A DNA stretch of 64,000 nt from Candidatus Staskawiczbacteria bacterium (lineage in GTDB: Bacteria; Patescibacteriota; Minisyncoccia; Minisyncoccales; Staskawiczbacteraceae), in contig CAISIO010000036.1 in the NCBI GenBank assembly GCA_903885445.1, forward strand, positions 37,485-101,484, written 5' to 3'. How positions within the stretch are numbered: position 1 is the stretch's first letter; the number at the start of each line of letters is the position of its first letter. Both the position numbers and the translations under genes were made by a program. Positions 15,898 to 61,669 of this stretch are shown piece by piece. The notes beneath the pieces are model-generated. The model made no database searches and was not told the origin of the DNA. It saw only the letters and a program-made list of their open reading frames with translations.

Positions 15898-15911
15898 AAT
15901 TGTGCGACAAG
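15898..15911 (-). repeat. 14-bp motif copy A (CTTGTCGCACAATT, minus orientation)
   Basis: One of 8 copies of TTTGTCGCACAATA-like motif. Lies in the -35/-10 spacer of the LAGLIDADG promoter. Confidence 0.7.
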
Positions 15912-16011
15912 TCAATGTCAAGCACTGTCTTCTTTATTAGGCAATTATCATTTCGCAGGCATATATTTTTTGACTTGTTTATTAATTTTTAAAACATGAT
16001 AAACTTAAAAT

Positions 16012-16719
16012 ATGTTAAGCGAAATTTTTGTTACGTCGTCTTTTGATCAATTGAAGGATTTATTTTTTCATCAATTGACGATATTGAATATCGCGTCTGC
16101 TTATATCTTGATGTATGTTATATACAAGGCATTTGGTCGTTATGTTTATTTTAAACCCCAGGAACATGCATCGAAAATAAATCGGACATTTCTCACTTTG
16201 TCAATAATTATTGTCTCAATTAACGTTATCTGGGGGATATCAAATTATTTGCCAGTTTTATCAGAATATCGCGGGTTTTATATGTTATGTGGTCTAGTTA
16301 TCCTTATGGCTCCGCTAAGTATTATTATGGATAGAATGATTTGGAAGTATGACTCTAACGGACGCAAAGAACGAAGAGATTGGCACTATTATTATTTGCA
16401 AATATCTAGGGATTATTATAAAACCAATATCACTAAAAGCGAGCGACATGATAACTATAGTGAAACATGGGAGGAGGAGGCGGTGGAAAGTACCGAAAAG
16501 AATATTCACTCTGATGCCCTGCTAAACATACTTGCGCTAGCTTTTTTTATTGGTGTCAGCGGGAAATGGGCTTATGAAAGTGCTAAAAATTATGGATACT
16601 TATCGTACATATTTTCTATTATTATTTGCCTTACAATCTCGAGTATTTTTTTGGATCATACTGTATTTTCCTGGATATCTTACATCGAAAAAGAAGGCCG
16701 AAAATTATTCAGAAAATAA
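16012..16719 (+). CDS. Hypothetical polytopic membrane protein
   Basis: 235-aa ORF, several TM helices, very AT-rich. Confidence 0.5.
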   Translation: MLSEIFVTSSFDQLKDLFFHQLTILNIASAYILMYVIYKAFGRYVYFKPQEHASKINRTFLTLSIIIVSINVIWGISNYLPVLSEYRGFYMLCGLVILMAPLSIIMDRMIWKYDSNGRKERRDWHYYYLQISRDYYKTNITKSERHDNYSETWEEEAVESTEKNIHSDALLNILALAFFIGVSGKWAYESAKNYGYLSYIFSIIICLTISSIFLDHTVFSWISYIEKEGRKLFRK

Positions 16720-16751
16720 AAATATTTATTGACTAAAAATTAAATAAAAAT

Positions 16752-17120
16752 ATGAAATTTTTACCAAATACATCAAAAGAATATCCGCTTCGTTTATTTA
16801 TCTATTGGTTAATAATATGGGCATTGTTATTCTTGTATTCCACAGTAATAATGTTGCCCAGAATATCAAGTAATGGATATGTTGTTAGAAAAGATGTGTG
16901 TTTGGAAGAAGCCCCTGCAGGCAGATTCGGCGAATATACTAAGTGCATTGATTATGGTGATCCCTATTACGTTCCGATCGGGAAGGAGCTTATGAATAAC
17001 TTTAAAAATAATGGGGTTGGTAGTTTTTTTGTTATACTTATAGTTAGTTTTGTTTTAATGGGTGGTAAAAGATTTGAAGAGAAACAAAGTAAAATTTTAG
17101 CAGAAAAATACGGCAAATGA
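16752..17120 (+). CDS. Hypothetical membrane protein
   Basis: 122-aa ORF, 2 TM helices. Confidence 0.45.
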   Translation: MKFLPNTSKEYPLRLFIYWLIIWALLFLYSTVIMLPRISSNGYVVRKDVCLEEAPAGRFGEYTKCIDYGDPYYVPIGKELMNNFKNNGVGSFFVILIVSFVLMGGKRFEEKQSKILAEKYGK

Positions 17121-17154
17121 AAAAATATATTAAATATTAAAAATACAGAATAGT

Positions 17155-17688
17155 ATGAATAAGAATGTTATCTATCTGATCTGTGCAGTATTATTAGTTG
17201 TCACTATTTGCAGTTTATTTTTTGCATACAATAATTCTAAAAATGTAGCTGTTGTTCCTAAACAAAATTTTGGTGGGGCTAATTTTTTTATGAATAATGT
17301 ATCGCAATGTCCTGATAATGTTAGCGTTCCTGATCAATTTTCTTGTTTGTATGAACTTGCAGACGCAACCGACAAGGAAGCAAATACTCTAGCTGAAAAA
17401 CTTATTTCTCAGGCGCCTATCCGCCTGGAAGAGATAACCATAAAAAAGACTGGACCAGTTTCATTTGTATATGGCGGAAGTGGTTTTTTAACCGATTTAC
17501 CCGTACAGGTTAAAAGGGCTCAACAAGCAAAGGATGAATATATAAAAAGTGTCTGCAACTTAACTTCAATGACTATTTATGCTGGTAGCGGGATGGATTT
17601 AGAGCAAAATGCTTGTAGGTATTACTTTACCAATGAATATCTACAAATATTAAAAAGCCTAGAAGGAGGTTTAACTGTGGAAGAATAA
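17155..17688 (+). CDS. Hypothetical secreted/membrane-anchored protein
   Basis: 177-aa ORF with N-terminal signal/anchor. Terminator hairpin AAAGCCACC..GGGTGGTTTTTT at 17765-17792. Confidence 0.5.
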   Translation: MNKNVIYLICAVLLVVTICSLFFAYNNSKNVAVVPKQNFGGANFFMNNVSQCPDNVSVPDQFSCLYELADATDKEANTLAEKLISQAPIRLEEITIKKTGPVSFVYGGSGFLTDLPVQVKRAQQAKDEYIKSVCNLTSMTIYAGSGMDLEQNACRYYFTNEYLQILKSLEGGLTVEE

Positions 17689-17728
17689 TTGAATGAAAAA
17701 GATATTTAATGTTAGTTTCGAGGACTTT

Positions 17729-17742
17729 CATTGTGCGACAGA
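17729..17742 (-). repeat. 14-bp motif copy B (TCTGTCGCACAATG, minus orientation, imperfect)
   Basis: Between stop of 17155..17688 and its terminator hairpin. Confidence 0.6.
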
Positions 17743-17805
17743 TTGAATGTACAGACTAAATAAAAGCCACCTTTTACTTTGGGTGGTTTTTTGGTAGAAT
17801 CATTT

Positions 17806-18151
17806 TAAGGAAGGAGGTGCGGTATGAAGAAACGCCGCGCTGCCTAAAAGAGGTCCGGAGTGGTGATCTCTCTCATAGCCCGTAAGGCTACAACAAGGCA
17901 AACGGCAAGTTCAAAGGTTCTCTTGCTACTTGTTGCGCGGAATAGCGTTGTACCCTCGTGAGAGATGTTAAACCAAGCTGCCTTCGGGAGATGGCAATCC
18001 CAACAGAGAGAAGGTAAACAACGAGAGGCTAACCATGCCTTTGGCCATGCATGCTGGCCCAGGTAAAGAGACAATTGTTCTCAGCACAGAGGAGCTAATG
18101 ATATGCTCTTCTACTTTCATGGGCGTGCATCTCTGTCCGCCCGTTTTTTTT
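17806..18151 (+). ncRNA. Candidate GC-rich structured RNA (~345 nt), class unknown
   Basis: Extended -10 TGGTAGAAT at 17792-17800. GC-rich segment with many nested helices (e.g. GAUCUCUCUCAU/GUGAGAGAUG, CAACAAG/CUUGUUG enclosing GCAAG/CUUGC, GGCCA/UGGCC, GAGGAGC/GCUCUUC, UUCG tetraloop). Ends in GGGCG..CGCCC + T8 terminator at 18121-18151. Only ORFs are a 7-codon MKKRRAA after AAGGAGG and an antisense junk ORF. Confidence 0.4.
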
Positions 18152-18164
18152 AATATATTGCGTT

Positions 18165-18767
18165 ATGAAAGAAGGGAAAAAATTTGGTGGGACTTTTTTG
18201 TTTTTCGATACGGAGACTACCGGGTTGCCGCTTAATTGGCGCGCGCCCGTAGATGATTTTTCTAATTGGCCCAGGATGGTGCAGATAGCTTGGGTGCTTT
18301 ATAAGGATGGAGTTAAACTTAGCAGCAGTAATTTTATAATTATGCCCGAAGGTTTTGAAATACCGGCTGAATCCTCAAAAATTCACGGCATAACAACTGA
18401 GCGAGCTAAAAAAGACGGCGTTTCTTTGCTGAAAGTTTTGAAGCAATTCCAAGGTTGCGCGGCAAAAGCAGACTTCTTGGTTGCTCATAATATGAGTTTT
18501 GACCAAATGATTGTCGGCGCAGAATTATTAAGAATGAATATGCAAAATTTCCTTGTTGCAAAAGACAGAATTTGTAATATGGAAATTTCTACAAATTTTT
18601 GCGCAATCTCAAGCGTGAACGGATACGGCGGTTACAAATGGCCCAAGCTTTCAGAACTCCACATGAAATTATTCGGCACGGAATTTGAAGATTCCCACAA
18701 TGCTATGGCCGACGTAGAGGCTACGGCAAAATGTTTTTGGGAAATGAAAAACCGCGGCATAATATAA
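18165..18767 (+). CDS. DEDDh 3'-5' exonuclease (DNA polymerase III epsilon/DnaQ-like)
   Basis: Exo I FFDTETTG, Exo II HNMSFDQ, Exo III HNAMADVEAT. Confidence 0.8.
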   Translation: MKEGKKFGGTFLFFDTETTGLPLNWRAPVDDFSNWPRMVQIAWVLYKDGVKLSSSNFIIMPEGFEIPAESSKIHGITTERAKKDGVSLLKVLKQFQGCAAKADFLVAHNMSFDQMIVGAELLRMNMQNFLVAKDRICNMEISTNFCAISSVNGYGGYKWPKLSELHMKLFGTEFEDSHNAMADVEATAKCFWEMKNRGII

Positions 18768-18795
18768 AAAAAGAGGGAATTGAGCCCTCTTTTTT

Positions 18796-18819
18796 ATCGG
18801 CTCAACGCGTTGACCCGAT
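18796..18819. other. Candidate dif-like tyrosine-recombinase core site (9-6-9: ATCGGCTCA-ACGCGT-TGACCCGAT)
   Basis: Near-perfect inverted arms around a 6-bp spacer, 13 nt from the xer gene stop, at the point where gene orientation flips. Confidence 0.4.
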
Positions 18820-18831
18820 GGATTGTTATGA

Positions 18832-19803
18832 TTATTTTTTATCAGGGTCGGAGTGGAATTGGTGGTGGATATCGCGGAGGCGCTTGTTGGTTACGTGCGT
18901 GTAGATTTGAGTGGTGGCGATGTTTGAGTGGCCTAGAAATTCTTGGATGCTGCGCAAGTCAACGCCTTGGTTTAACAAATCTGTCGCGTAGCTGTGGCGC
19001 AAAGTATGCGGAGTGGTGAAGATTGGCACGCCTGAAAGCAGAGCGTATTTTTTTACCATTCTTTCTATAGATCGCGGAGTAAGACGGGAGTCGGTGTTAT
19101 CGGCCTTATCGCGGAAGTTTATAAACAAGGCTTTTTGGTTGGCGTGCTTAACATCATTTCTTATTTCTAAATATTTTCTGATAAAGCCCAACGCGCGTTC
19201 AGAAAAATAAACAACTCGAGGTTTTCCGCCTTTGCCAATAACACCAAGCTCCATATCTTTTTTATCTTTTAAACTGTTAAACTGCTCAAGATTTAAAGAA
19301 ACCAGTTCGGCGATGCGAAGCCCTGTTGAGAAAAACGCCTCCAAAATAGCCCGGTCGCGGGTGCTTATATCGTCTTTTGGCTCTATGGAAGATAAAAGCT
19401 TACCAATCTGCTCTAAACTAAGGAATTTTATGCTTTTTAAGCCCCTGTCAGGCTTTGAGAGCGATATTTTGTCAGGGGGCAGTGAAAGTACGTCTTTTGC
19501 CACAAAGTAGCCTAAAAAGGCCCTTAAGGCGATTAAATAGTAGTTTTGGGTGCCTTTAGACAGCAATTTGCCGGTAGTTGGGCTAGGCGTGCGGGAAAGG
19601 TATAAACGGTAGGTCCAAACATGGTCAGAGGTCAGCTGATGGGGGAGTAAAGAGGATAATTTGTCCTGGTCTAGCCAATGAAAAAATTTCCCCAGATAAT
19701 TTTTATAATTCTCCTGAGTATTTTTTCTCAAACCTTTTTCAACTTCGCAATAATCTAAAAAATCTTGCAGATGTTCTTTTATTGGTTTTGTTGAGTTTTG
19801 CAT
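18832..19803 (-). CDS. Tyrosine site-specific recombinase, XerC/XerD family
   Basis: 323 aa. N-terminal core-binding domain, C-terminal catalytic domain with R...HTLRHSYAT...LGHSNIATTQIYTHV (R-H-R-Y signature region). Confidence 0.85.
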   Translation of the reverse strand: MQNSTKPIKEHLQDFLDYCEVEKGLRKNTQENYKNYLGKFFHWLDQDKLSSLLPHQLTSDHVWTYRLYLSRTPSPTTGKLLSKGTQNYYLIALRAFLGYFVAKDVLSLPPDKISLSKPDRGLKSIKFLSLEQIGKLLSSIEPKDDISTRDRAILEAFFSTGLRIAELVSLNLEQFNSLKDKKDMELGVIGKGGKPRVVYFSERALGFIRKYLEIRNDVKHANQKALFINFRDKADNTDSRLTPRSIERMVKKYALLSGVPIFTTPHTLRHSYATDLLNQGVDLRSIQEFLGHSNIATTQIYTHVTNKRLRDIHHQFHSDPDKK

Positions 19804-19945
19804 TTTTCCGGATTTTTAGAAGCACCACCTTAGATAACGTCGCTTTACCTACATTTTGCGACATAGCCTATATACTAATAATAGCCGTCCCCTAGACCCG
19901 TGTCAACACTCAAAAGCCTTAAAAGACGACCTAAACTACAACTTA

Positions 19946-20320
19946 TTATTTAACAGCCGGAGCTTGGGCCGGCTGGACTGCGCAATTATTATTTTCTCCC
20001 GGATGTAAAATGCTATCTGCAATTCCGGAAAAATAATTTCCAATTTTTGTTGAAATATTTTCTGAAACTTTATTTTTTTCTTGCGTGATTTCATTTTTTA
20101 TCACGTCTCCCCTCTTCTGCACCTCCCCGCTTATGGTCGGGTATACTTTAGACATAACCCAATTAGACCCTTTTGCCGCGTATGCCTGGACTTGGCTTTC
20201 GGCTCCCGAAATAAGGTTTTTCCCAAATTCCCTTGTGTATGCCTGCTGGCCCAAAAAAACAACAGCCAATATAACAGCTATGATTACAATATACTTTATA
20301 AAGCCTTGCTGATTGTCCAT
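19946..20320 (-). CDS. Hypothetical membrane-anchored protein
   Basis: 124-aa ORF, N-terminal TM. Confidence 0.5.
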   Translation of the reverse strand: MDNQQGFIKYIVIIAVILAVVFLGQQAYTREFGKNLISGAESQVQAYAAKGSNWVMSKVYPTISGEVQKRGDVIKNEITQEKNKVSENISTKIGNYFSGIADSILHPGENNNCAVQPAQAPAVK

Positions 20321-20379
20321 ATAAAAAAATTTATAAGTTATTTGTATATTATATCACTCCCCTTTTTTACAAGCAAAAG

Positions 20380-20393
20380 TTTGTCGCACAATA
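20380..20393 (+). repeat. 14-bp motif copy C (TTTGTCGCACAATA; 22/23 identical with copy F over TTTGTCGCACAATAAGATA[G/A]ACC)
   Basis: Direct sequence comparison. Confidence 0.75.
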
Positions 20394-20489
20394 AGATAGA
20401 CCAAAACTTAAAGCGATTCTTAAAAAAGTTTGGGCGGCTGCTTTGGTAAGCAGCCGCCCCGAGAATCTGATGGTCAGATCCCCCCGTTG

Positions 20490-20654
20490 TCACCGTGAAG
20501 GTGACGTTGATGTGGCCGGCGTGATGCCGGCGTTTTCCAGGGCTTTTGCGATGCCCTGGCTGTGATCGCCCTGCATCTGGGTTGTTCTGCCAACTGCCCA
20601 AGCTCCGATGCAGAGCCCCGTGGCAATCACCAACATCGCAAGAATCCATTTCAT
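20490..20654 (-). CDS. Small secreted peptide (54 aa, signal peptide), GC-rich micro-island
   Basis: MKWILAMLVIATGLCIGAWAVG signal-like N-terminus. Terminator GGGCGGCTGC..GCAGCCGCCC + T-run at 20410-20455. Preferred over out-of-frame track ORF 20338..20649. Confidence 0.45.
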   Translation of the reverse strand: MKWILAMLVIATGLCIGAWAVGRTTQMQGDHSQGIAKALENAGITPATSTSPSR

Positions 20655-20769
20655 ATTCTGCCCTTTCGTTCGTGGTTCTATTGTGATTCAGCCTAGATTA
20701 ATTATAACATATTAATATAGTCATGTCAAGTAAATAAAAACACCCTGCGCGGGTGCTCTTACTTGCCGA

Positions 20770-20783
20770 TTTGTCGCACAATA
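20770..20783 (+). repeat. 14-bp motif copy D (TTTGTCGCACAATA)
   Basis: 8 nt beyond stop of 20792..21358 (minus) and before its CACCC..GGGTG terminator. Confidence 0.75.
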
Positions 20784-20791
20784 GAGTATTT

Positions 20792-21358
20792 TTACTGCCT
20801 TATTTCTTCCGCGCTTACGATATGGCGGGAATTTTTTAAAACTCTCAGTTGATATTGTATAGAGGGTCTATTTGCATCGTATTCGTTTTTACCTAAGGAT
20901 TTAAGATCGGAATTGTCGTAATAACCGCAAAAGACATCATAAGTATCGCCATTTATATCTATGCAGCGAGTGCAGGCGAGATTTCTGGGGTTATGCGGGC
21001 ACCAATGCAGGCTGATTTTGGCGGTTATTTTTGTTTGGTTTAGGCCGAAACCGTCCATGAAATAATTACTGAGCATCCATCCGAACAATAAAATACACAA
21101 CACGCTAGCGGTTAAAAATATTATTGAGAATTGCAGTTCATCCTTATTCTTTTTCTTTTTTTTCAGCAGAACAACCGCATAAAGCAATCCAAAAATTGAG
21201 GCGGCGAAAAAAACAATGTAAATAATGTTTTCGAAAAGCAGCGCTAATAGCTGGTATTTGCTAAACGGCAACAACAAAAAACCCAGCGCGCACGATGCCA
21301 AAAATGTGAGAATAAAAATCCATAACCCCCAAACTAAAGCCCTTCCTTTTGCAGTCAT
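20792..21358 (-). CDS. Hypothetical membrane protein with Cys-rich C-terminal domain
   Basis: 188-aa ORF, 3 TM helices then CPHNPRNLACTRCIDINGDTYDVFCGYYD. Confidence 0.5.
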   Translation of the reverse strand: MTAKGRALVWGLWIFILTFLASCALGFLLLPFSKYQLLALLFENIIYIVFFAASIFGLLYAVVLLKKKKKNKDELQFSIIFLTASVLCILLFGWMLSNYFMDGFGLNQTKITAKISLHWCPHNPRNLACTRCIDINGDTYDVFCGYYDNSDLKSLGKNEYDANRPSIQYQLRVLKNSRHIVSAEEIRQ

Positions 21359-34260: not shown

Positions 34261-35250
34261 TTAATTAGAAAGCAGGTTTGTGATAATTTTGACGATTTTG
34301 TCTTTTTCTGCGGGATTACTTATGGCAATCAAAAGCGAAAGCGCGGTTAAGGCGTTGTCATTTATTTTCTTTTCGTTGTTGTCTTTGTAAAGGTAATTAT
34401 TTTTGTCTAAATAATAAACAAACAAGAACGATGCGATTCTTTTGTTTCCGTCAACAAATGGGTGGTCTTTTATTATAAAGTATAACAAATGAGACGCCTT
34501 TTCTTCAATGCTCGAGTATAATTCCTTTTTATCAAATGTCTGCAAAATATTCCCCAAAATTGCTTTAAATTTATCTTCATATTCCTGGCCAAAAATTTCG
34601 CCTGCTTGTTTCTTCTCTATCAACTTTTTTTTAATTTCCTTAATAATTTCAGCTGATTTTCCGTAATTTAAAACAAACTTTCCTTTGCCGGTTTTCAGCA
34701 ACGAAACTTTTTCCTTGTCATATTGCTCGAGCAATGTTAAGGTTTTTGAATAATCCGCCAACAAACTCAAAATCTCCTGCTCTTGCCCCGCAAGTAACTC
34801 GTGCTTTGATTTTTCCTGTAAAAACAAAATTGACGACTGCAATTCCTTAAATTTATTTTCTGATTGCAGAAGTTTTTTCTCGTTTATCACAAACCCATCT
34901 ACGATATAGCTCCGTAGTGTTTTGGTTGTCCATTTTCTAAATTCTATTGCAACCTTTGAATTTGTCCTATACCCGACTCCCAGGATAACATCAAGCGAGT
35001 AAGATATAATAGGTTTATCAGAATTTGCATTATGCATTTTTTGCATATTGCTTTTTTCTTCAATTTCGCCGTCTCTAAATATGTTTTTTATGTGACGAGA
35101 AACCACCGATTGGTCAACGCCAAAAAGATTTACTATCTGCGCTTGTGTAGCCCAAATAGTTTCCCGCGCAAAATCTCCCCGAAGCTCAATAGCTCCAGAT
35201 TTTGCCTGATAAATAATTATTTCTCCTTTTTTTAATTCCTCTTTTTTCAT
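34261..35250 (-). CDS. Fic/DOC-family protein with N-terminal RhuM-like domain
   Basis: Fic motif HPFVDGNKR near C-terminus. N-terminal region resembles RhuM/virulence-protein family. Confidence 0.8.
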   Translation of the reverse strand: MKKEELKKGEIIIYQAKSGAIELRGDFARETIWATQAQIVNLFGVDQSVVSRHIKNIFRDGEIEEKSNMQKMHNANSDKPIISYSLDVILGVGYRTNSKVAIEFRKWTTKTLRSYIVDGFVINEKKLLQSENKFKELQSSILFLQEKSKHELLAGQEQEILSLLADYSKTLTLLEQYDKEKVSLLKTGKGKFVLNYGKSAEIIKEIKKKLIEKKQAGEIFGQEYEDKFKAILGNILQTFDKKELYSSIEEKASHLLYFIIKDHPFVDGNKRIASFLFVYYLDKNNYLYKDNNEKKINDNALTALSLLIAISNPAEKDKIVKIITNLLSN

Positions 35251-37726: not shown

Positions 37727-38221
37727 TTAAAATTGTGATAACTTTTTAATTATTTGGTTAATTATATTCATATCTTGCCCGAAAGATGTTTTTGACGAGC
37801 CAAGAATATTTAAAATCTCAAATAAATCCTCACCCTCGGGCATATTGGAAATAGACAAAGTCATAGACGTTTCAGTAAGCGAGCTCATCAACTCTTGCGT
37901 TAAACGCATTTCCTGCTCTATCTGTTGGTGCGCTGATCTGATTTGTCGCACAATAAAACTGGCGAATTCATTCTCTTTTTCTTCGGCAATTTTTTCTGAT
38001 AAATATTTATAAGCTTTTTTGGTTGGGACCCTCCCCGCTGAAGTGTGGGGCTGTTCTATAAATCCCTGCTTGGCTAAAACCTGCAAATCATTTCTTATTG
38101 TTGCTCCACAAACATCCAAATCCGTAACCTTTTTTAAGGCCTTAGAGCTCACAGGTTCAGCTGTGCTTATATATTCTTTAACCAGAAATTCCAAAAGTTT
38201 TTCTTGTCTGTTTGTAATCAT
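37727..38221 (-). CDS. hrcA: HrcA-like heat-inducible repressor (short, 164 aa: winged-helix N-terminal domain only)
   Basis: ITNRQEKLLEFLVKEYISTAEPVSSKAL...ATIRNDLQVLAKQGFIEQPHTSAGRVPT matches HrcA N-terminus. Operon position upstream of grpE. Confidence 0.7.
   Translation of the reverse strand: MITNRQEKLLEFLVKEYISTAEPVSSKALKKVTDLDVCGATIRNDLQVLAKQGFIEQPHTSAGRVPTKKAYKYLSEKIAEEKENEFASFIVRQIRSAHQQIEQEMRLTQELMSSLTETSMTLSISNMPEGEDLFEILNILGSSKTSFGQDMNIINQIIKKLSQF
37943..37956 (+). repeat. 14-bp motif copy E (TTTGTCGCACAATA) inside hrcA coding sequence
   Basis: Encodes ...FIVRQIR... on the minus strand. Confidence 0.7.
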
Positions 38222-53941: not shown

Positions 53942-55126
53942 TTATTTAATTTCTTTCACTTCTGAAACAATTATACCATCAGAAACTTTTATATTCACGT
54001 CTTGCCCGATTTTTGTGTCGCTTGTCTTCCTGACTATTTTCCCGCCAACCGACGCAATACTATATCCTAGCTTTAAATTCCTTTCGGGATTATTAAGATT
54101 TACCACTTTCTCTATTCCATTCAGTTTTTCGCGTGTTTTGTCGCACAATAAGATAAACCCTGTAAAATAGCTTTCCATTTGCTTATCCAAATTGGCGCCA
54201 ATATTCAAGATATTGTTTTTAAAATTCTGCAAAGATATTTTAAACTTGTTTTCAATTGTTTTATACTTTTCAAAAATCAGCCCATAACTGGCAAAAATTT
54301 TCCTTTCAAACCTTTCCAGCAACAACAACGCCTGTTCCCACGATTCATTCAGCAAATTAGCCACGGCAGTTGGAGTTGATTCGCTTCTGTCAGCTGCCAT
54401 TGCAACAAGCGGAACATCTTTATCGTGCCCAATTCCCACCAGCACCGGCACAGGAAACCCCACCACCTCGCGCACCAGCAGTTCATTGTTAAAAGGCATC
54501 AGCGATTCCATTGACCCGCCCCCTCTGATAATAACCAGCACATCAATATCTTTTTTTCTAAATGTTTTAATTGACTCCAGCAAATCTTCCACCGCCCCCT
54601 GCCCCTCAACCCTTGAATCAATCATTTTAATATCAAACCCAAACTTGCCAATATTATTTAAAAAGTCGTGTATGACCGCCCCTTGTTTTGAGGTAATCAC
54701 CCCAATTTTGTGCGGATATTTTGGAATTGCCCTTTTATTCTCCAAATCAAAAAGCCCTTCTTTGGCCAGCTTGTTTTTCAATTCATCGTACTGTTTTTTT
54801 ATATCGCCCTCGCCAGCCAATTCAATTGTATCTGCAATAAAAGACAGCCTCCCGTTTGGAGCATAAATCTCCGGCGCTCCATAAGCCACAATTTTCTTCC
54901 CCGGCTCCAAAGTAATCCCAAACAATCTATACTTTGAGCTCCACATTATGCAATTCAACATCGTCCCATCTTTCTCATCCTTCAAAGTAAAATACATATG
55001 CCCTGTTGGCCCAGCCTTAGCCTCGCCCACCTCCCCCACAATCCTCGCCTTCATCCACTTCAAATCCGCATTAACCACCGTAATAAACTCCGATACAGAA
55101 TAAATTTTATCCTTTTCAATTTCCAT
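53942..55126 (-). CDS. xseA: Exodeoxyribonuclease VII large subunit
   Basis: N-terminal OB-fold (tRNA_anti-like) and ExoVII large-subunit catalytic region. Confidence 0.85.
   Translation of the reverse strand: MEIEKDKIYSVSEFITVVNADLKWMKARIVGEVGEAKAGPTGHMYFTLKDEKDGTMLNCIMWSSKYRLFGITLEPGKKIVAYGAPEIYAPNGRLSFIADTIELAGEGDIKKQYDELKNKLAKEGLFDLENKRAIPKYPHKIGVITSKQGAVIHDFLNNIGKFGFDIKMIDSRVEGQGAVEDLLESIKTFRKKDIDVLVIIRGGGSMESLMPFNNELLVREVVGFPVPVLVGIGHDKDVPLVAMAADRSESTPTAVANLLNESWEQALLLLERFERKIFASYGLIFEKYKTIENKFKISLQNFKNNILNIGANLDKQMESYFTGFILLCDKTREKLNGIEKVVNLNNPERNLKLGYSIASVGGKIVRKTSDTKIGQDVNIKVSDGIIVSEVKEIK
54137..54150 (+). repeat. 14-bp motif copy F (TTTGTCGCACAATA) inside xseA coding sequence
   Basis: Encodes ...FILLCDKT... 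on the minus strand. 22/23 identical to copy C over 23 nt. Confidence 0.7.
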
Positions 55127-57106: not shown

Positions 57107-57293
57107 GGGAATTATTTTATTATTTTATCACAAAGCCCGTTTGTTAGACACTGTGGATAACTTTTTTTGCCAGAGATTTCTATGTTTATCACAAATATAT
57201 GGCGAAGTCAACACCTATTATTACGTATTATTTTAAATTTTAGATTAAATTTTTTTTGATAGCTTTCGTCGCCAAATTGATTTATTCTGTCTA

Positions 57294-57800
57294 TTATATT
57301 TTTATTTTTTCTTTGGCGGATTGGAGCAGGGCTAAATCTCGGGTGACCATATATGGGCCGTCTAGAACTATTGGTTTGCTTTCCTTAACTTTTTTTATTG
57401 CTTCATCAAGCGAAACCCAAACTGTTTCGAAACCTTCCTCGGCTTCATCTTTTTCCAAATGTGGAACGCCTTTTTCTCCAACAAGCTCGGCAATATAGCA
57501 ATATGAAATCTGTTTTAGATTAAATTCCTTTCTGTATTCCACGGTCAAACCCAATTCACCGGTAATTTTAACATTGCATCCAATTTCCTCCAAACATTCC
57601 CGTTTTAAAGCTTCTTCTTTTGTTTCGCCCTTTTCAATTCCTCCGCCGGGTAATTTATAATAAAAAGTTTTTGTTGCGTGAAGCAAAGCAACTAATTTAT
57701 TGCTATCAAAAACAATCGCCCTCGCCGCCTCGCGAATTTTATATCCATCCGCCTCCTCATCCGAAACATTTCTAATATTGATTAACTTAATCTGCTCCAT
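57294..57800 (-). CDS. NUDIX hydrolase
   Basis: Nudix box GGGIEKGETKEEALKRECLEEIG. Confidence 0.8.
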   Translation of the reverse strand: MEQIKLINIRNVSDEEADGYKIREAARAIVFDSNKLVALLHATKTFYYKLPGGGIEKGETKEEALKRECLEEIGCNVKITGELGLTVEYRKEFNLKQISYCYIAELVGEKGVPHLEKDEAEEGFETVWVSLDEAIKKVKESKPIVLDGPYMVTRDLALLQSAKEKIKI

Positions 57801-57804
57801 TGAG

Positions 57805-57824
57805 TTATTTTACTCTTTATCTAT
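57805..57824. repeat. Conserved promoter module copy R1 (revcomp ATAGATAAAGAGTAAAATAA)
   Basis: Same 20-mer found at 60345 and 62462, each immediately upstream of a minus-strand AT-rich enzyme gene. Confidence 0.7.
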
Positions 57825-57901
57825 ATTTTTGCAAAAAAAATCCCCAACGCGCTTTGATCTGCGTGGGGACATGAGACATTCAGTTGCACCGGGTGGCGCA
57901 A

Positions 57902-58405
57902 CTACTTGACGACGTATTCCTCGAAGTTCTCCTTGGGCGGATTGGGCTTGGTCTTGAACGGCGCCCAGTTGAACTTCGAACTTGAAGCGTTGTACTCCCT
58001 GGCCAGGTTGTTCCGTTGGGAAGCAACAGCGATGAGATCTTCCCTCGCTTGCTGACGCTCCCTATTGAACTGGACCTGGATGTGGGGTGGCCACTTGGAC
58101 CTGTCGTCGCCGTAGCTCTTGTACTGCTCGTCCACCGACGAGCCCCGCTTCTCGAACATGACGATGTCCTGGTCCATCTTCTTTATGCGGGCGTTCTGGT
58201 CGATGAACCATTCGTACTTCTCGAGCGCGGCCTTGGGGCCGAACTCCTGCTGGGCGACCACCGCCGCCTCGCCGAACCAGCCGAAGCCGTATCCGATGAC
58301 GCCCACGACCACGGAAAACGCCACCACGAAAAGGATGACCTTCCAGGTGATGGACCAAGGACCCTTCTCCGCCGCTTGCTGATACCCATTCCAGTTGTTG
58401 CTCAT
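57902..58405 (-). CDS. Hypothetical membrane-anchored protein (GC-rich)
   Basis: 167-aa ORF with N-terminal TM. Terminator CCCCAACGC..GCGTGGGG + T-run at 57839-57875. Confidence 0.4.
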   Translation of the reverse strand: MSNNWNGYQQAAEKGPWSITWKVILFVVAFSVVVGVIGYGFGWFGEAAVVAQQEFGPKAALEKYEWFIDQNARIKKMDQDIVMFEKRGSSVDEQYKSYGDDRSKWPPHIQVQFNRERQQAREDLIAVASQRNNLAREYNASSSKFNWAPFKTKPNPPKENFEEYVVK

Positions 58406-58456
58406 GCGATTCTCCTGTTCCCGAGGTTAATTGTTCCGTTCTGGTGCCCGTTCGTC

Positions 58457-59155
58457 CTACTTCTTCTCCGCCTCGACCTTGAACTTGCCCTCCTTGATTC
58501 TCAGTTGCTCCTCCTGCTGGAGTTGCCAGTCGTGAGCGGCCTTGCTCATGTTGTACATACCCGTCACCTCGTCTTGTGGGTTGACGAGATCAATAGGGTA
58601 ATCGGTGATCAGGTAACCAATGCCGCCCGCCGTACCATACTGATGGTATCTGTGCATGGCGTCGAACCAGTAAATGTAGTTGTCCGATTCTCCACGGGTT
58701 CCGTCGGGGCCGATGGCCTCGTCTGTGAGAAAACCCTTATAGCTCGGTAGGCTGCTGGTGACCACGTTTTGACCATCAGCAACATAGTGCTTCGGTTCCA
58801 ACCGCTTGTTGGAACTGGTGACCTTGCAAGCCACCGGCATCCGCTTGATGATTTTGCCGTCCAGGGCCATCAAGTGAATCCACATCACCTTGGTGGGGTC
58901 ATTGGTCACCGCAATGCGGTCGTTGATGTTCTGCTGTTCGACCGTGTTGCCTCTGGAGTTCAGCGGTACTTTGACTGGAGAAGCTTGCTTGGCACCACTT
59001 GCCGATTCTTCGATCCTCCGATTATCGCACCCGCTCTGGCCTTGCCCTACCATCAGGCAGAGCACTCCGAACACAACCATTATTGTCGCCTTGCGCATGT
59101 TTGCGCTCCTTTCCAACTTCTCACGAGATTGTATGGACAAACCCCGCCATTTCAA
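58457..59155 (-). CDS. Hypothetical lipoprotein-like protein (GC-rich)
   Basis: Probable true start at internal MRKATIMVVFGVLCLMVGQGQSGC (signal + Cys). Confidence 0.4.
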   Translation of the reverse strand: MKWRGLSIQSREKLERSANMRKATIMVVFGVLCLMVGQGQSGCDNRRIEESASGAKQASPVKVPLNSRGNTVEQQNINDRIAVTNDPTKVMWIHLMALDGKIIKRMPVACKVTSSNKRLEPKHYVADGQNVVTSSLPSYKGFLTDEAIGPDGTRGESDNYIYWFDAMHRYHQYGTAGGIGYLITDYPIDLVNPQDEVTGMYNMSKAAHDWQLQQEEQLRIKEGKFKVEAEKK

Positions 59156-59326
59156 TGGCGAGATAAAACGAGGGGCTAGGACTTTTCTGCTAAAATGTCT
59201 CCTTTCAGATTTACAACGAACCGATTAGACAGCCACAAGCTGTCTAACTTACACTTTGGATTATAGCACTATTTATTATTAATGTCAACAGACGTAAAAC
59301 CAAAAAGCCGAGATAAAATCTCGGCG

Positions 59327-59340
59327 ATTGTCGCACAACA
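59327..59340 (+). repeat. 14-bp motif copy G (ATTGTCGCACAACA)
   Basis: Between stop of 59349..59870 and its GCCGAGAT..ATCTCGGC terminator. Confidence 0.7.
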
Positions 59341-59348
59341 AGATTATT

Positions 59349-59870
59349 TTATAAATTATATTCCCAGAAGGGTTGCCATTTGAAGGGAGTTTTTACGCAA
59401 TCTTCAAGAGTTTTGCCGGTCAGAGTATCTAATCCGAATTGAGTTGCGCGGTGGCCGACAACTAAAATTATCTTATCGGGATATTTTTGTTTCAATTCTT
59501 TAAAAAATTCTTGAACCCTTGTTATCGCCTGCTCATAGCTCTCGCCTTTTGGGAAAGGCATTTTTATTCTTTCTGCTTTCATTTTATCAACAATATTTTT
59601 GGGTTTGCCGTTAAAATCTCCGTAATTTAATTCGCGCAATCTTTTATCAATGATAACAGGAATTTTTTCTCTAAATGCAATTTTAACAGTATCTATTGCC
59701 CTAATTAAATCCGAGCAACAAATAATATCAAATTTTATATCTCCCAAAGCATTTTCCAGCTTTTTTGATTGTTGCACGCCCAACGGAGATAACTCAATAT
59801 TGTTCCAGCCGGAAGCTATGTCTTTTTCGTTATCAGTTGTTGTTGAATGGGTCGCAAAATATATCTTCAT
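59349..59870 (-). CDS. Histidine-phosphatase (phosphoglycerate-mutase-like) superfamily protein
   Basis: 173-aa, fold-level resemblance only (catalytic RHG replaced by THS at N-terminus), so assignment is tentative. Confidence 0.45.
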   Translation of the reverse strand: MKIYFATHSTTTDNEKDIASGWNNIELSPLGVQQSKKLENALGDIKFDIICCSDLIRAIDTVKIAFREKIPVIIDKRLRELNYGDFNGKPKNIVDKMKAERIKMPFPKGESYEQAITRVQEFFKELKQKYPDKIILVVGHRATQFGLDTLTGKTLEDCVKTPFKWQPFWEYNL

Positions 59871-60325
59871 AATGAATTTTCTTTGACCAGCTCTATCCTG
59901 GGCTCGCCGTCGCCGAAATAATTTTCTTTTTGCTCTTTTATTACAAAACCAAATGAAAGATAAATTTTCAGCGCGCCACTGTTTTCGGGATGCGTTACCA
60001 GCTCAATTCTTTTCATATTTTTCAGTTCTTCCAGCAAAAGCCGGGTTGCCTCCCGCCCAATCCCCTGTTTTTGAAATTGCGGGTCAATGGCAAGTCCCGA
60101 GATATAAGCAACGCCATCGGGCTTTATCTCGTAAGATGCGTCTCCGACAATTTTGCCATCACGCAAAATAAGATAAACCACTGCGTTATTTTTATTAAAA
60201 ACTTCTTCCCACCCTTTTTCTGTAATCTCAGCAGAATAGTTTTTGATGCCAATCAGCTTCTTTTCAATCTCTATCAAAACCGGAATGTCTTTAATTGTCG
60301 CTTTTTTAAAAATTATCTCCGCCAT
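59867..60325 (-). CDS. GNAT-family N-acetyltransferase
   Basis: Motif A ...QFQKQGIGREATRLLL... Confidence 0.8.
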   Translation of the reverse strand: MAEIIFKKATIKDIPVLIEIEKKLIGIKNYSAEITEKGWEEVFNKNNAVVYLILRDGKIVGDASYEIKPDGVAYISGLAIDPQFQKQGIGREATRLLLEELKNMKRIELVTHPENSGALKIYLSFGFVIKEQKENYFGDGEPRIELVKENSL

Positions 60326-60344
60326 AAAAATCTTTATTGTTCTG

Positions 60345-60406
60345 TTATTTTACTCTTTATCTATTTCTTTTCAATCACCGCCATCGGGTCAACGAACTGA
60401 CCCGAT
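60345..60406. repeat. Promoter module + 24-bp palindrome, copy R2/P2 (ATCGGGTCA-ACGAAC-TGACCCGAT at 60383-60406)
   Basis: ~62 bp near-identical to 62462-62523. Confidence 0.75.
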
Positions 60407-60503
60407 AAAATTTGCAAGAAAAATGGCCCGGCAACCAGCATCCTTGCTGGTCATCGGGCCTTTGTGTCGCGCTCGCTATATGCGAGCAAAACCTGTTAGA
60501 GGA

Positions 60504-60878
60504 CTAACCCTCCTCATCGTCCTCGTCGAGGGGTCTGTCTTTCTTGCCTTCATCCTCATCGTCATCTTCCTCGTCCTCGTCATCGTCGGGGAAGAGACTC
60601 CAGTCTTCCTCTTCCTCGTCGTCGTCATCGTCAAGGTTCTGATCCAGGAGGTTCCCCTCGGCGAGCTCTCGGGCGGTCGCGGCGAGCCACTCACGGAGTT
60701 CTTCCGGCGTGACGCCCATCTCCTTGGCAGCACGGAGGAAAAGCTCTTTGTCGAGTTCCTCGGTACTGTCGTTCAAGGGAAGATCTTCGCCAGGGTATTT
60801 CTCCGGCTTCAGCTCCTTCTCTTTCCAGTTCCACTCGTCCACCGCCAGGCCAATCGTCTCAATCCTTGCCTTGTCCAC
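60504..60878 (-). CDS. Hypothetical highly acidic protein (GC-rich), paralog of 61192..61536
   Basis: GTG start with AAGGAGA SD. Shares ...VDEWNWKEKE...LFLRAAKEMGVTPEELREW... with neighbour. Poly-D/E tail. Terminator at 60420-60470. Confidence 0.45.
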   Translation of the reverse strand: MDKARIETIGLAVDEWNWKEKELKPEKYPGEDLPLNDSTEELDKELFLRAAKEMGVTPEELREWLAATARELAEGNLLDQNLDDDDDEEEEDWSLFPDDDEDEEDDDEDEGKKDRPLDEDDEEG

Positions 60879-61191
60879 GTCAGTCTCCTTTTCTCGGCGC
60901 TACTTGTCCTTGTGTTATCGCCAACAGTTGCTCTGGCGCTTCAGCGGCGGTTAAGGCAACTGTTTTCGTACTATGAATATAATATCATATATAGAAATTA
61001 CGTCAATATTAAAATCAAACAAAAAGTACGGTAGCCTAAGAGCACGATTTCGCTATCTTAATGCGGATTAAATTAGTCCGCATCGCGGTTTTCTGCTAAG
61101 CCTTAATTCGCGCAAAAAAATCCCCGAGCACGCGATGATCTGCGTGTCCGGGGTCCCTTCTCGCCTTGCTGAAGCGAGAACTTACGACAAT

Positions 61192-61536
61192 TCATGCTCC
61201 CGCGCCTCGTCGGTCAGCTCTCTTCCCACACTGTTGGTCGGAGCGAGCGCGGCAAGGATGTCCGTCTGTGCTGAGCATATCAGCTATGCGCAGTGGACTC
61301 ACGTTTGGAGAAGGCGCTCCGAGCGGTCCGCACAGATCCTCCTCGAACCAATTGTGTAGTTCGTCTGGTTCGATGCTCATTTCCCGGGCCGCGCGGAGAA
61401 ACAATTTCCTGTTTTCCCCCTCAGTGTTGACGGTCAGTGCAGGAATGGCATTGGGAAAGTCTTTTCCCACTTGCTCCTTATCGTTCCATTCTTTCACCAG
61501 CCTTTCAATGTCGCCGAAACGCACATGTGTCATCAT
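61192..61536 (-). CDS. Hypothetical protein (GC-rich), paralog of 60504..60878
   Basis: AAGGAGA SD. ...VKEWNDKEQV...LFLRAAREMSIEPDELHNW... Confidence 0.45.
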   Translation of the reverse strand: MMTHVRFGDIERLVKEWNDKEQVGKDFPNAIPALTVNTEGENRKLFLRAAREMSIEPDELHNWFEEDLCGPLGAPSPNVSPLRIADMLSTDGHPCRARSDQQCGKRADRRGAGA

Positions 61537-61655
61537 GATTGTCTCCTTTTTCGGCCTATGCTCGTCGCACGTTATTTATATATAAAATACCACATATAAA
61601 AATGTGTGTCAATAAAAATAAAAGCAAACAAAAAGCCGATATTGAAGTGTCGGCT

Positions 61656-61669
61656 TTTGTCGCACAATA
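61656..61669 (+). repeat. 14-bp motif copy H (TTTGTCGCACAATA)
   Basis: Between stop of HIT gene (61673) and its GCCGACA..TCGGC terminator. Confidence 0.75.

Follow-up and report, generated by a model that had tools for sequence, protein, structure and literature searches.

The locus examined here raises the question of which protein reads a short, strand-polarised motif that recurs along the window (the whole stretch of 64,000 nucleotides that was analysed) and reverses its orientation at the putative replication terminus.

Copies of the motif in the window

A scan of both strands identified eight exact copies of the 10-mer TGTCGCACAA in the window, located at 15900(-), 17731(-), 20382(+), 20772(+), 37944(+), 54139(+), 59329(+), and 61658(+). 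The 14-mer TTTGTCGCACAATA was found to be exact at 20380, 20770, 37942, 54137, and 61656 and to have two mismatches at 15898, 17729, and 59327, and the counts of the 10-mer and the 14-mer were reached in 0 of 100 dinucleotide shuffles of the window. The eight copies reported in the initial annotation were thus reproduced, the observation being even stronger than claimed, and the positions given for them were correct except for 37943, which was off by one. Their division into two minus-strand copies on the left and six plus-strand copies on the right also held, all eight being polar with the flip at 19.8 kb. A ninth, degenerate match, TTTGTCGCGCAAAA, is present at 4337(+) within a sulfatase gene in the "wrong" orientation and is probably due to chance.

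Copy A (CTTGTCGCACAATT; 15898–15911, minus strand) lies in the promoter region of a head-on LAGLIDADG gene (15358–15852, minus strand), and copy B (TCTGTCGCACAATG; 17729–17742, minus strand) lies 40 nt past the stop codon of a plus-strand gene (17155–17688), ahead of a hairpin and a T-run. The exact 14-mers C (20380–20393) and D (20770–20783), both on the plus strand, are located, respectively, 3 nt upstream of the −35 element, on the sense strand, in the promoter of a 124-aa gene and 8 nt past the stop codon of a minus-strand gene (20792–21358), ahead of a terminator hairpin. Copies E (37942–37955) and F (54137–54150), which are also exact and on the plus strand, are the two that were said to be within coding sequence, and they do lie in a short hrcA-like gene (37727–38221), where copy E encodes F-I-V-R-Q-I, and in xseA (53942–55126); copies C and F share 22 of 23 nt, as had been noted. 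Copy G (ATTGTCGCACAACA; 59327–59340, plus strand) is 8 nt past the stop codon of a minus-strand His_Phos gene (59349–59870) and abuts a terminator hairpin (59325–59307), and copy H (exact; 61656–61669, plus strand) is 3 nt past that of a minus-strand HIT gene (61673–62128) and likewise abuts a hairpin. The shared context of stop codon, motif, and terminator that had been proposed for B, D, G, and H is therefore found at D, G, and H and is looser at B.

Replichore polarity in related loci

The distribution of the motif was determined in 80 related metagenomic loci (697 kb), each with the orthologous xer gene at its centre. The 10-mer occurred 73 times on the minus strand and once on the plus strand upstream of this gene, and 95 times on the plus strand and five times on the minus strand downstream of it. 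When the 12-mer was counted with at most one mismatch, 215 copies were polar and nine anti-polar, and, after clustering by flanks, 177 contexts were polar and seven anti-polar (96% polar), including 52 of 52 polar among those more than 1.5 kb from xer; a few anti-polar copies are located 3′ of the LAGLIDADG gene. In 37 of 37 long loci, xer is the point of convergence of both GC skew and gene orientation. Thus, the replichore-linked strand polarity claimed by the initial annotation, with its flip at the putative terminus, was confirmed in the window and in the ~80 loci.

The orientation is set by the replichore and not by transcription. About 60 copies just past the head-on xer gene keep the replichore polarity, as do the 22 of 70 distal copies that adjoin or sit inside head-on genes, and the orientation flips in the locus L104 though all genes there share one strand. 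The density of the motif is 3.1 per kb at 0–250 bp past xer and 1.4 per kb at 500–1000 bp upstream of it, the latter being the conserved peak of which copy C is the orthologue, against a background of ~0.1 per kb. Tandem clusters in the same orientation adjoin xer, and copies reach at least 42 kb from dif. In 58 kb from relatives that are ~55% identical in one protein, there were no copies of the motif, which weighs against the reading favoured below.

The terminus, the dif-like site, and the xer gene

The GC skew in the window flips at ~20 kb, with a cumulative G−C maximum at 19663 and a plateau at 19599–19884. A dif-like site of canonical 11-6-11 form, ACGTCGCTTTA-CCTACA-TTTTGCGACAT (19837–19864, plus strand), lies inside this plateau at less than 200 bp from the maximum, is unique in the window, and coincides with the flip of the motif. 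It is in the 5′ leader of a gene for a Xer-family tyrosine recombinase of 323 aa (18832–19803, minus strand) and almost all of the loci L121–L194 keep it at 20–40 bp upstream of xer. The Xer protein matched the NCBIfam models of XerD, XerC, and XerA at 1e-56 to 1e-66, each below the equivalog cut-off, and also matched XerA and XerD in the PDB; the xer orthologues in L104, L114, and L121–L194 are 89–93% identical.

Likeness of the motif to an arm of dif

The consensus of the motif is wTT-TGTCGCA[C/T]AAT-AAAA. Among 180 unique copies, conservation is only ~58% for the 5′ TT, versus 96/87/74/73/66% for T-A-A-A-A on the 3′ side; the element is asymmetric and no palindromic operator, and the palindromic TTGT-N3-ACAA core suggested earlier could not be upheld. 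The flanks of the copies are unrelated, so the motif does not terminate a longer repeat of a mobile element.

The conserved dif arm TGTCGCAAAAT and the motif TGTCGCACAAT agree at 10 of 11 positions, for which we estimated a chance probability of ~3e-4, and the right arm of the dif-like site in the window, read on the minus strand as ATGTCGCAAAA(T), shares 10 of its 11 positions with the motif. In most lineages, the motif has one systematic base difference from its own dif arm (C/T versus A), and a different reader is therefore possible. XerC of E. coli has the arm GGTGCGCATAA. In the distant relative L199, in which Xer is 58% identical, dif is GGTTCGCATAA-TTATAG-TTAAGCGCACC, each arm of which agrees with that E. 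coli arm at 10 of 11 positions. The polar copies in L199 (7/7) are all of the T variant GTCGCATAAT, which resembles the L199 dif arm TTCGCATAAT, TCGCATAAT being common to both; the motif variant changes in concert between lineages. Because the motif is a near-copy of a dif arm, a Xer recombinase, and not the FtsK gamma domain or a RecBCD/AddAB-type enzyme, is its likely reader, as suggested by sequence similarity and gene adjacency.

The intragenic copies, found in all three reading frames, indicate that the motif is under selection at the DNA level. One position in gltX carries either a perfect 12-mer, and then the altered peptide (A/G)LLLCD, or a sequence with at least four mismatches, and copy E is kept at 14 of 14 positions in the hrcA orthologue of L065, the surroundings of which are ~73% identical.

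The LAGLIDADG gene and the bracketed blocks

The LAGLIDADG gene beside copy A is single-domain and free-standing (Pfam LAGLIDADG_1), syntenic, and conserved, being present in 27 related loci, including L199, with an identity of 59–81%. Its product matches meganucleases in the PDB and keeps the acidic residue. The gene is always preceded by one or two motif copies; promoter-like TTGACA-17-TAAAAT and TTGTCG-17-TATACT overlap copy A, which has orthologues upstream of the gene in L104 and many of L121–L200. It is possible that the LAGLIDADG protein is an alternative binder of the motif or that the gene is simply regulated. The bracketing of a 1.8-kb AT-rich block by copies A and B and of a 54-aa gene by copies C and D, as initially described, was corroborated by relatives without these blocks: in L104, two copies separated by 25 bp occupy the equivalent of 15898/17729 and one copy that of 20380/20770. 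The interval from xer to the LAGLIDADG gene is 0–8 kb long, depending on the locus, and motif copies are interspersed in it.

Proposed role as polarised Xer half-sites and its alternatives

The reading that we favour, with a probability of about 0.45, is that the motif may represent dispersed, replichore-polarised copies of the conserved arm of dif, which would serve as Xer half-sites gating translocation to dif. Each copy is supposed to be bound asymmetrically by one monomer of the single Xer recombinase. The outer end, 5′-TTGTCGC, faces dif in all copies, and the inner end on the central-region side, AAT-AAAA, faces the origin; by this shared orientation, machines moving from origin to terminus, for which FtsK pumping toward dif, SMC-ScpAB, and the replisome are candidates, would all meet the same permissive face, and movement away from dif would meet the blocking outer face. 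The array may thereby act as one-way gates that funnel translocation to dif, with the dense, often tandem copies directly flanking the module of the 124-aa gene, dif, and xer as a possible backstop. A half-site carrying a monomer of XerD or Cre is a 3–5-fold better stop for FtsK arriving at the outer face than at the inner face (PMC2800217), and this asymmetry predicts the orientation of the motif as observed. Furthermore, XerD on dif-like XDS in the terminus of B. subtilis unloads SMC, according to the accounts of Karaboja et al (2021) in PMC11840125 and PMC10945525. Neither FtsK nor SMC is encoded in the window or the related loci. About 70% of the copies are intergenic, and 36% of the intergenic ones are no more than 15 nt from a sense stop codon; the half-site model accounts for this placement only as the use of a "free slot", which counts against it. 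The window also contains G-rich heptamers, GGGGATT among them, with a skew of 100%, so that a classical KOPS could coexist and leave the motif with another role.

That the motif is itself a classical KOPS/SRS guide read by the FtsK gamma domain, its likeness to the dif arm being incidental or parking FtsK at dif, seems unlikely. The motif shows over-representation and, in the dif region, the skew of at least 90% and the density of at least one copy per 40 kb by which KOPS candidates were defined (PMC3384302), and 5′-TATTGTGCGACA-3′ on the leading strand points to dif as KOPS does. However, the motif has 12–15 conserved positions and is not purine-rich, whereas KOPS, SRS, and the L. lactis motifs are G/A-rich words of 7–8 bp; its over-representation of ~1000-fold is unlike that of KOPS; the agreement with the dif arm is not predicted; and the skewed G-rich heptamers are more conventional candidates. 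Of the KOPS/Chi-like behaviour claimed initially, the polar distribution therefore stands and the sequence, 12–15 bp against 5–8 bp, does not. A Chi-like hotspot for a RecBCD/AddAB-type enzyme would agree with the over-representation, the co-orientation with replication, and a spacing of ~1 per 8–10 kb, but appears highly improbable, as the motif is far longer than any known Chi (5–8 nt), its skew of 96% is far above that of Chi (~75%), the clustering at xer/dif and the likeness to the dif arm are left unexplained, and no RecBCD or AddAB genes were seen. We also regard as quite improbable a Ter-like fork trap, in which a motif-bound Xer or LAGLIDADG protein arrests forks one way and fusion is confined to the 2-kb dif/xer interval. 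It would fit the near-absolute polarity flipping at the terminus, the innermost, often tandem copies flanking dif/xer, and the GC-skew switch inside this interval, as well as the candidate binder gene adjoining sites that overlap its own promoter, comparable to tus-TerB and rtp-TerI, in which Ter sites overlap the promoter of the adjacent binder gene. Nevertheless, sites spaced ~10 kb apart over a distance of at least 42 kb are far denser than in known Ter systems, no Tus/RTP homologue was seen in the window, a LAGLIDADG homodimer is expected to need a pseudo-palindrome of ~20 bp and not an asymmetric motif of ~15 bp, and neither Xer nor LAGLIDADG proteins are known to us to act as fork barriers.

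An attachment site for cassettes similar to IMEX or pdif modules, the copies having been left by Xer-mediated insertion of mobile DNA, could explain the two bracketed blocks, the pair and the single copy in L104, and the punctuated interval between xer and the LAGLIDADG gene. This is very unlikely, given that a half-site alone is conserved without a second arm or central region, that copies lie inside the conserved housekeeping genes hrcA, xseA, and gltX and as far as 42 kb from dif, that active direct repeats would delete essential genes, and that polarity over both replichores is not predicted. We give scant credence to an element acting at the level of transcription, be it the operator of a GntR/FadR regulon or an RNA motif of 3′-UTRs or terminators, to which the fit of the core to TNGT-N3-ACNA, the position close to stop codons and often ahead of a terminator hairpin, and the overlap of one copy with the LAGLIDADG promoter would correspond. 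The operator alternative of the initial annotation fails because the motif is asymmetric, with a weakly conserved 5′ half, is mostly located within genes or at their 3′ ends, and has an orientation bound to the replichore, even beside head-on genes, that is inverted past xer; moreover, the intragenic copies occur in three frames, the motif had no match in Rfam, and a stable downstream hairpin is present at only 28% of copies. Least probable of all is a DUS/USS-like uptake sequence for natural competence, on which CPR bacteria are thought to rely, although the 12-mer is hugely over-represented in coding and intergenic DNA, occurs preferentially near terminators, and comes in "dialects" that are specific to lineages (the C and the T variant). 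Uptake sequences known to us lack replichore polarity, whereas 96% of the copies here are polar with the orientation flipping at dif, and neither the likeness to the dif arm nor the clustering at xer is predicted.

Comparison with known systems

As in XerS/difSL and XerH/difH, a single Xer-family gene with dif directly upstream is located at the GC-skew switch, but the recombinase here scores best against the XerD/XerC/XerA models, below their equivalog cut-offs, and the dispersed polar half-sites are without counterpart there. Asymmetric sites flipping across the terminus, and a candidate binder gene beside sites that overlap its promoter, are shared with Ter/Tus and Ter/RTP, from which the array differs by an order of magnitude higher density and the lack of a Tus/RTP homologue in the window. 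Known fork traps comprise ~10 sites of 16–23 bp. To our knowledge, no natural genome-wide array of recombinase half-sites has been described. The block at the outer face has a precedent in the work of Graham et al (2010) (PMC2800217), which was an in vitro dissection of dif and loxP; here, the outer face is toward dif on both arms.

KOPS, SRS, and the L. lactis motif GAAGAAG are likewise over-represented and convergent on dif, with at least 90% of the copies in the dif region sharing one strand and a comparable spacing of 1 per 10–16 kb, but KOPS are purine-rich words of 7–8 bp for the FtsK gamma domain (PMC3384302), in contrast to the present motif, which has 12–15 specific positions, is not rich in purines, is similar to a recombinase arm, and is ~70% intergenic. 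The array is best read as closest in molecular nature to the XDS of B. subtilis and KOPS-like in outcome. According to what PMC11840125 and PMC10945525 relate of Karaboja et al (2021), XDS are also dispersed, dif-like Xer half-sites in the terminus region apart from dif and act on an origin-to-terminus machine without recombination, which is shown for XDS and proposed here. The present array is strictly replichore-polar. Unlike XDS, the motif is similar to the XerC-type arm of a dif that serves a single recombinase, and its copies, which are written into genes and reach at least 42 kb from dif, are far denser, at ~1 per 10 kb and with peaks on either side of dif.

A predicted Xer/dif module at the terminus

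At ~20 kb, the GC skew of the window changes from positive (left) to negative (right), and the cumulative G-C curve peaks at 19663, on a plateau spanning 19599-19884. Within this plateau falls a 28-bp dif-like site (19837-19864, ACGTCGCTTTA-CCTACA-TTTTGCGACAT), which has the classical 11-6-11 architecture, is unique in the window, and is located directly upstream of the start of xer (18832-19803, minus strand), a gene for a Xer-family tyrosine recombinase. Read in the orientation of xer, the site is A[T/C]GTCGCAAAA-TGTAGG-TAAA[G/C]CG..., and nearly all related metagenomic loci keep it, at a distance of 20-40 bp upstream of xer and 3' of a TTGAC-N17-TATTAT promoter (in the window, TTGACA-17-TATTAT at 19906-19878). 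The window xer was 89-91% identical to the genes of two lake MAGs labelled Candidatus Staskawiczbacteria (loci L104 and L114), and several further loci were syntenic with the window, which places the organism near these within the Patescibacteria (CPR). At L199, one of two distant relatives with a 58-59% identical Xer, the equivalent site is GGTTCGCATAA-TTATAG-TTAAGCGCACC, each arm of which matches the E. coli XerC arm, GGTGCGCATAA, at 10/11 positions. The best model scores of the recombinase were those of XerD, XerC, and XerA, all below the equivalog cut-offs, and its structure matches were XerA and XerD. We regard xer and the dif-like site as a predicted single-recombinase Xer/dif module at the terminus, and it may be an undescribed CPR type of Xer/dif.

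Motif copies in the window

The exact 10-mer TGTCGCACAA was found eight times in the 64 kb, that is, once per 8 kb, on the minus strand at 15900 and 17731 and on the plus strand at 20382, 20772, 37944, 54139, 59329, and 61658, and five of these eight places carry the exact 14-mer TTTGTCGCACAATA. All eight copies (8/8) are on the leading strand and point to dif, the furthest lying 42 kb from it. The copy number and the strand split of the initial annotation (two minus-strand copies to the left and six plus-strand copies to the right) were thus reproduced by the 10-mer search, and its coordinates agreed for all copies but one, which was off by one. In the comparison with shuffled controls, run on the window, the observed numbers of the 10-mer and the 14-mer were reached by 0/100 dinucleotide-preserving shuffles. 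The local contexts that had been described for the copies also held: on the sense strand of the adjoining gene, four follow a stop codon and precede a hairpin, and two are within genes, one in the HrcA-like gene (37944, plus strand; a 164-aa wHTH gene) and one in the coding sequence of xseA (54139, plus strand). A degenerate match with two mismatches (TTTGTCGCGCAAAA, 4337-4350, plus strand), within a sulfatase-family gene and wrongly oriented for the left replichore, is probably a chance occurrence.

The window genes are ordinary chromosomal ones, including those for CTP synthase, UppS, GltX, MurG, FtsW, MurD, DnaJ/DnaK, a short HrcA, and XseA. The HrcA homologue (37727-38221, minus strand; 164 aa) has an N-terminal wHTH without the usual C-terminal domain, and its gene is upstream of dnaK/dnaJ with several other genes between. 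An AT-rich stretch (~36.5% GC) between the chaperone genes and hrcA holds a RhuM/Fic-domain gene (34261-35250, minus strand), which may be horizontally acquired and toxin-like.

Polarity in related loci

A metagenome scan with the Xer protein gave 80 loci (697 kb), which were oriented with xer on the plus strand; the polarity evidence covers the 64-kb window and these 20-kb loci around xer. The motif was conserved there, and the exact 10-mer was present as 73 minus-strand copies versus one plus-strand copy upstream of xer and as 95 plus-strand versus five minus-strand copies downstream. With the 12-mer TGTCGCACAATA, the number of polar copies (minus strand to the left of dif, plus strand to the right) versus anti-polar copies was 145 versus 5 at zero mismatches and 70 versus 4 at one mismatch, resulting in 215/224 (96%) polar copies at up to one mismatch. 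At two mismatches, polarity was gone (54 versus 62), and the anti-polar class consisted mostly of the dif arm itself. After the clustering of copies by their flanks, 177 of 184 contexts were polar and 7 were anti-polar, and all contexts more than 1.5 kb from xer were polar (52/52). The few anti-polar copies are all no more than 1 kb from xer and, where their position could be assigned, are mostly just 3' of a head-on LAGLIDADG gene. Among the loci with long flanks, the GC skew was positive to the left of xer in 37/37, and to the right it was negative wherever the right flank was appreciable, save for two loci at about zero. The flip of orientation across the terminus claimed by the initial annotation is therefore present in the relatives as well as in the window.

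By itself, the skew is weak evidence, since genes run in the direction of replication (95% and 88% of coding sequence on the two sides of xer), and many ordinary words of the window such as GGGGATT are likewise 100% skewed. The orientation of the motif could, however, be separated from that of transcription. The xer gene is head-on, yet the copy that most loci have just past its stop keeps the replichore orientation and not the one antisense to the upstream gene. At L104, the motif flips across xer and all genes stay on one strand. Among the copies more than 1.5 kb from xer, 70/70 were polar, including 22 beside or inside head-on genes. G-rich heptamers are also on the leading strand throughout the window (GGGGATT 15/15, GAGGAAG 12/12), and these are candidates for conventional KOPS-like words, with a skew confounded by the 90-95% co-directional genes.

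A scan of genome contigs with the exact 14-mer gave mostly chance matches in all phyla; Patescibacteria were enriched, with ~22 of 120 loci among the matches listed, and it yielded the syntenic relatives L104, L114, L065, L025, L028, and L008. Six of the 22 Patescibacteria loci among the matches listed map to the region of the 64-kb window; in the remainder, polarity mostly agrees with the local GC skew, and some are coding-sequence coincidences. No copy was found in the 58 kb of L201-L204, loci at 55%-identical homologues of the right-end gene of the window, a result uninformative on the genome-wide distribution in this lineage.

Anatomy of the motif and its likeness to the dif arm

The logo of 180 unique copies reads w-A-T-T-TGTCGCACAA-T(96%)-A(87%)-A(74%)-A(73%)-A(66%), with 12 invariant or near-invariant positions and a 3' A-tract, and it is not purine-rich. 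The 5' TT was only ~58% conserved and the 3' half 96-100%, and the information content was ~0 outside positions -3 to +14. The motif is therefore an asymmetric word of ~15 bp, and the palindromic TTGT-N3-ACAA core proposed at first does not hold. The motif tolerates any base at position 1, T in place of C at position 8 (30 polar copies), and T in place of A at position 12.

Comparison of the motif TGTCGCACAAT with the conserved dif arm TGTCGCAAAAT revealed a match at 10/11 positions, for which we estimate a chance probability, for either dif arm, of ~3e-4. The seven T-variant copies at L199 all read GTCGCATAAT, with two to the left of xer on the minus strand and five to the right on the plus strand, and they have TCGCATAAT in common with the dif arm of the same locus, TTCGCATAAT. 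The T variant is also used at a further related locus, L173. These variants indicate one dialect per genome, and the dialect stays Xer-arm-like. On sequence likeness, the motif appears visibly derived from the dif arm.

Selection and gene context

Although ~88% of the sequence is coding, ~70% of the copies are intergenic. Those in genes occupy all three frames: ATT GTG CGA CAA in hrcA and xseA, TTG TGC GAC in gltX, and TGT GCG ACA in a different gene, at L058 and L074. Of the 40 relatives aligned at an orthologous position of gltX, 12 carry a perfect TATTGTGCGACA, encoding the peptide (A/G)LLLCD(K/R/T), and the other 28/40 encode mostly SLxxS(E/K)K, with at least four mismatches and no intermediates. 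The hrcA copy is identical at 14/14 positions in L065, where the surrounding region is ~73% identical. Selection thus acts on the DNA of the motif itself, and with enough strength that protein sequence is overwritten. In the positional check against stop codons, 51/141 intergenic copies were within 15 nt of a sense stop, and we infer that this position is the least constrained slot of very short intergenic regions.

The density of copies peaks at 3.1 per kb within 0-250 bp past the xer stop and at 1.4 per kb at 500-1000 bp upstream of the xer start, the latter beyond a conserved 124-aa membrane-protein gene, and has a background of ~0.1 per kb out to 10 kb. Tandem clusters in the same orientation were observed beside xer (four copies in ~100 bp at L122 and two copies 1 nt apart at L137). 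The conserved order is gltX, motif, 124-aa gene, promoter and dif, xer, motif, variable stretch, motif (one or two copies), LAGLIDADG gene, and uppS. The interval from xer to the LAGLIDADG gene is ~0-8 kb in the relatives (42 bp to 7.7 kb) and is an insertion hot spot at the terminus. Compared with L104, the 15.9-18.8 kb segment and the cassette of a 54-aa gene are insertions in the window, both bracketed by motif copies, in agreement with the bracketing noted initially.

Within the variable segment (15912-18830) are an AT-rich three-gene block, a GC-rich stretch between genes, and a gene for a DEDD/DnaQ-like exonuclease (18165-18767). The block (16012-17688) had no Pfam match and no homologue in any related locus. 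The GC-rich non-coding stretch (17800-18148, plus strand; ~340 nt) ends in a terminator (18120-18139) and folds at -117.6 kcal/mol (z-score -2.25); it matched no Rfam family even at E<=1, lacks a homologue in the related loci, and may be an uncharacterised ncRNA. The 54-aa signal-peptide-like gene (20490-20654, minus strand) is preceded by its own perfect sigma-70-type promoter at 20729-20701 and followed by a strong terminator at 20459-20432; it is flanked by two motif copies in the window, and was found only there and at L140/L141. The LAGLIDADG gene (15358-15852, minus strand) is free-standing and single-domain, with the acidic residue at the catalytic position kept (KLVNNDG). It was present in 27 of L121-L200 at 59-81% identity, vertically conserved, always head-on beside uppS, and always preceded by one or two motif copies overlapping its promoter; homing endonuclease genes do not usually behave in this way, which suggests domestication. 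A ~30-nt extension, ACTTCG[G/A]CT[T/A]CGCTCAG[T/C][G/A]CAGGCA[G/A]ATT, is common to a minority of motif copies. It directly follows the reverse-complement motif at L121 (e.g. minus strand, 5218), L125, and L130, follows it after a short spacer at L199, and occurs without the motif at L146; it may be a small repeat family carrying or targeting the motif.

Alternative explanations

The motif is real, strongly selected, replichore-polar, and converges on dif, and several known classes of element could be compared with these properties. A GntR/FadR operator, the alternative named in the initial annotation, would be a two-fold symmetric TNGT-N3-ACNA; it was rejected on the asymmetric logo (~58% conservation in the 5' half versus 96-100% in the 3' half), the location of copies mostly at gene 3' ends or in genes, and the replichore-locked orientation. 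Chi, a 5-8-nt word of RecBCD/AddAB with a moderate leading-strand skew, was rejected on the length of 12-15 nt and the skew of 96%; no RecBCD or AddAB genes were found among the window proteins scanned (64 kb of an incomplete genome). DNA uptake sequences (DUS/USS) are 9-12-mers on both strands without replichore polarity, and the motif resembles them in being over-represented with dialects but is 96% polar. An att site of an IMEX/pdif module or cassette was rejected because no conserved second arm or central region accompanies the motif, though copies bracket inserts. A terminal repeat of a mobile element (TIR, MITE, or REP), which the initial annotation had named as an outcome that would refute it, was not found in the logo, and copies have unrelated flanks, are present in housekeeping genes, and have hairpins that differ from copy to copy. 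A promoter reading, with TTGTCG as the -35 element, fits the LAGLIDADG-proximal copies only, and an RNA motif was rejected on the lack of an Rfam family match and the presence of a downstream hairpin in only ~28% of the copies.

Two further explanations would involve the terminus itself. Known Ter systems consist of ~10 sites of 16-23 bp bound by Tus or RTP. A Ter-like fork trap is compatible with the asymmetric sites flipping across the terminus and with a conserved, vertically inherited LAGLIDADG gene that has the motif in its promoter, but the sites are far denser than those of known traps, and a LAGLIDADG homodimer would require a pseudo-palindrome, which the motif is not; the window proteins scanned (incomplete genome) gave no match to a Tus or RTP family. 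It is also possible that the FtsK gamma domain reads the motif directly, as a classical KOPS, although the length, the composition, and the dif-arm similarity of the motif fit this poorly.

Proposed mechanism and significance

FtsK meeting a half-site occupied by one XerD or Cre monomer was stopped 3-5 fold more efficiently at the outer face than at the inner, central-region face (Graham et al., PMC2800217), and in B. subtilis, XerD on the dif-like XDS sites of the terminus unloads SMC independently of recombination (Karaboja 2021, as related in PMC11840125 and PMC10945525). By homology with the dif arm, the outer end of the motif is 5'-TTGTCGC and the inner end is AAT-AAAA. In the window as in the relatives, the copies of either replichore have the outer end toward dif and the inner end toward the origin, a correct prediction with 50% odds by chance, so that movers from origin to terminus would meet the permissive inner face. 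Movers leaving the dif region would meet the blocking face, with the densest, tandem copies just outside the dif/xer module. From the two precedents and this orientation, we propose that the motif could be a polar array of Xer half-sites at which FtsK and/or SMC would be gated one way or unloaded, where the binding of Xer, the gating, and the client machine are what we infer. We tentatively put at about 0.3 the probability that chromosome polarity in this CPR lineage is set, without or besides a KOPS word, by Xer monomers on ~1 polar half-dif site per 10 kb, which would act as one-way gates funnelling FtsK, SMC, or the replisome to dif and trapping it there. A motif-pattern search of the window and related loci found no FtsK- or SMC-like ORFs.

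If true, this would represent a new mechanism by which replichore direction is read and would give Xer a second role across the genome, and it is directly testable. The polarity signal is unusually long and unusually strict (96%), and, as a practical use, the motif and the dif site could help locate the terminus and orient contigs in Patescibacteria MAGs. The cell biology of CPR bacteria is almost unknown. To our knowledge, polar architecture motifs such as KOPS, Chi, and Ter come from a handful of cultivated model bacteria and nothing comparable has been described for CPR; in the literature searched, we found no polar half-dif array, nor anything comparable for Patescibacteria.

Comparison with known systems

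The finding ties together dimer resolution by Xer/dif, the unloading of SMC by XerD at XDS in Bacillus, and the in vitro roadblocks that half-site recombinases form for FtsK. In its arrangement, the module is like XerS/difSL, although its recombinase does not reach the XerC/XerD/XerA equivalog cut-offs. With KOPS/SRS, the motif shares, in the window and the 80 loci, a leading-strand skew toward dif of at least 90% and over-representation, whereas KOPS/SRS are 7-8 bp, purine-rich, and read by the FtsK gamma winged helix, and the motif has 12 near-invariant positions and is not purine-rich. Of the KOPS- or Chi-like character initially suggested, the KOPS likeness stands for the distribution, which is 96% polar and converges on dif, and neither stands for the sequence of 12-15 nt. 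Since the motif behaves like KOPS but derives, by its likeness, from a dif arm, the closest known counterparts are the XDS sites: it likewise resembles one arm of the dif site of the organism (10/11 positions, and a shared TCGCATAAT at L199). XDS are located in the terminus region; in the window and the xer loci covered here, the copies of the motif are densest beside dif/xer and are present to 42 kb.
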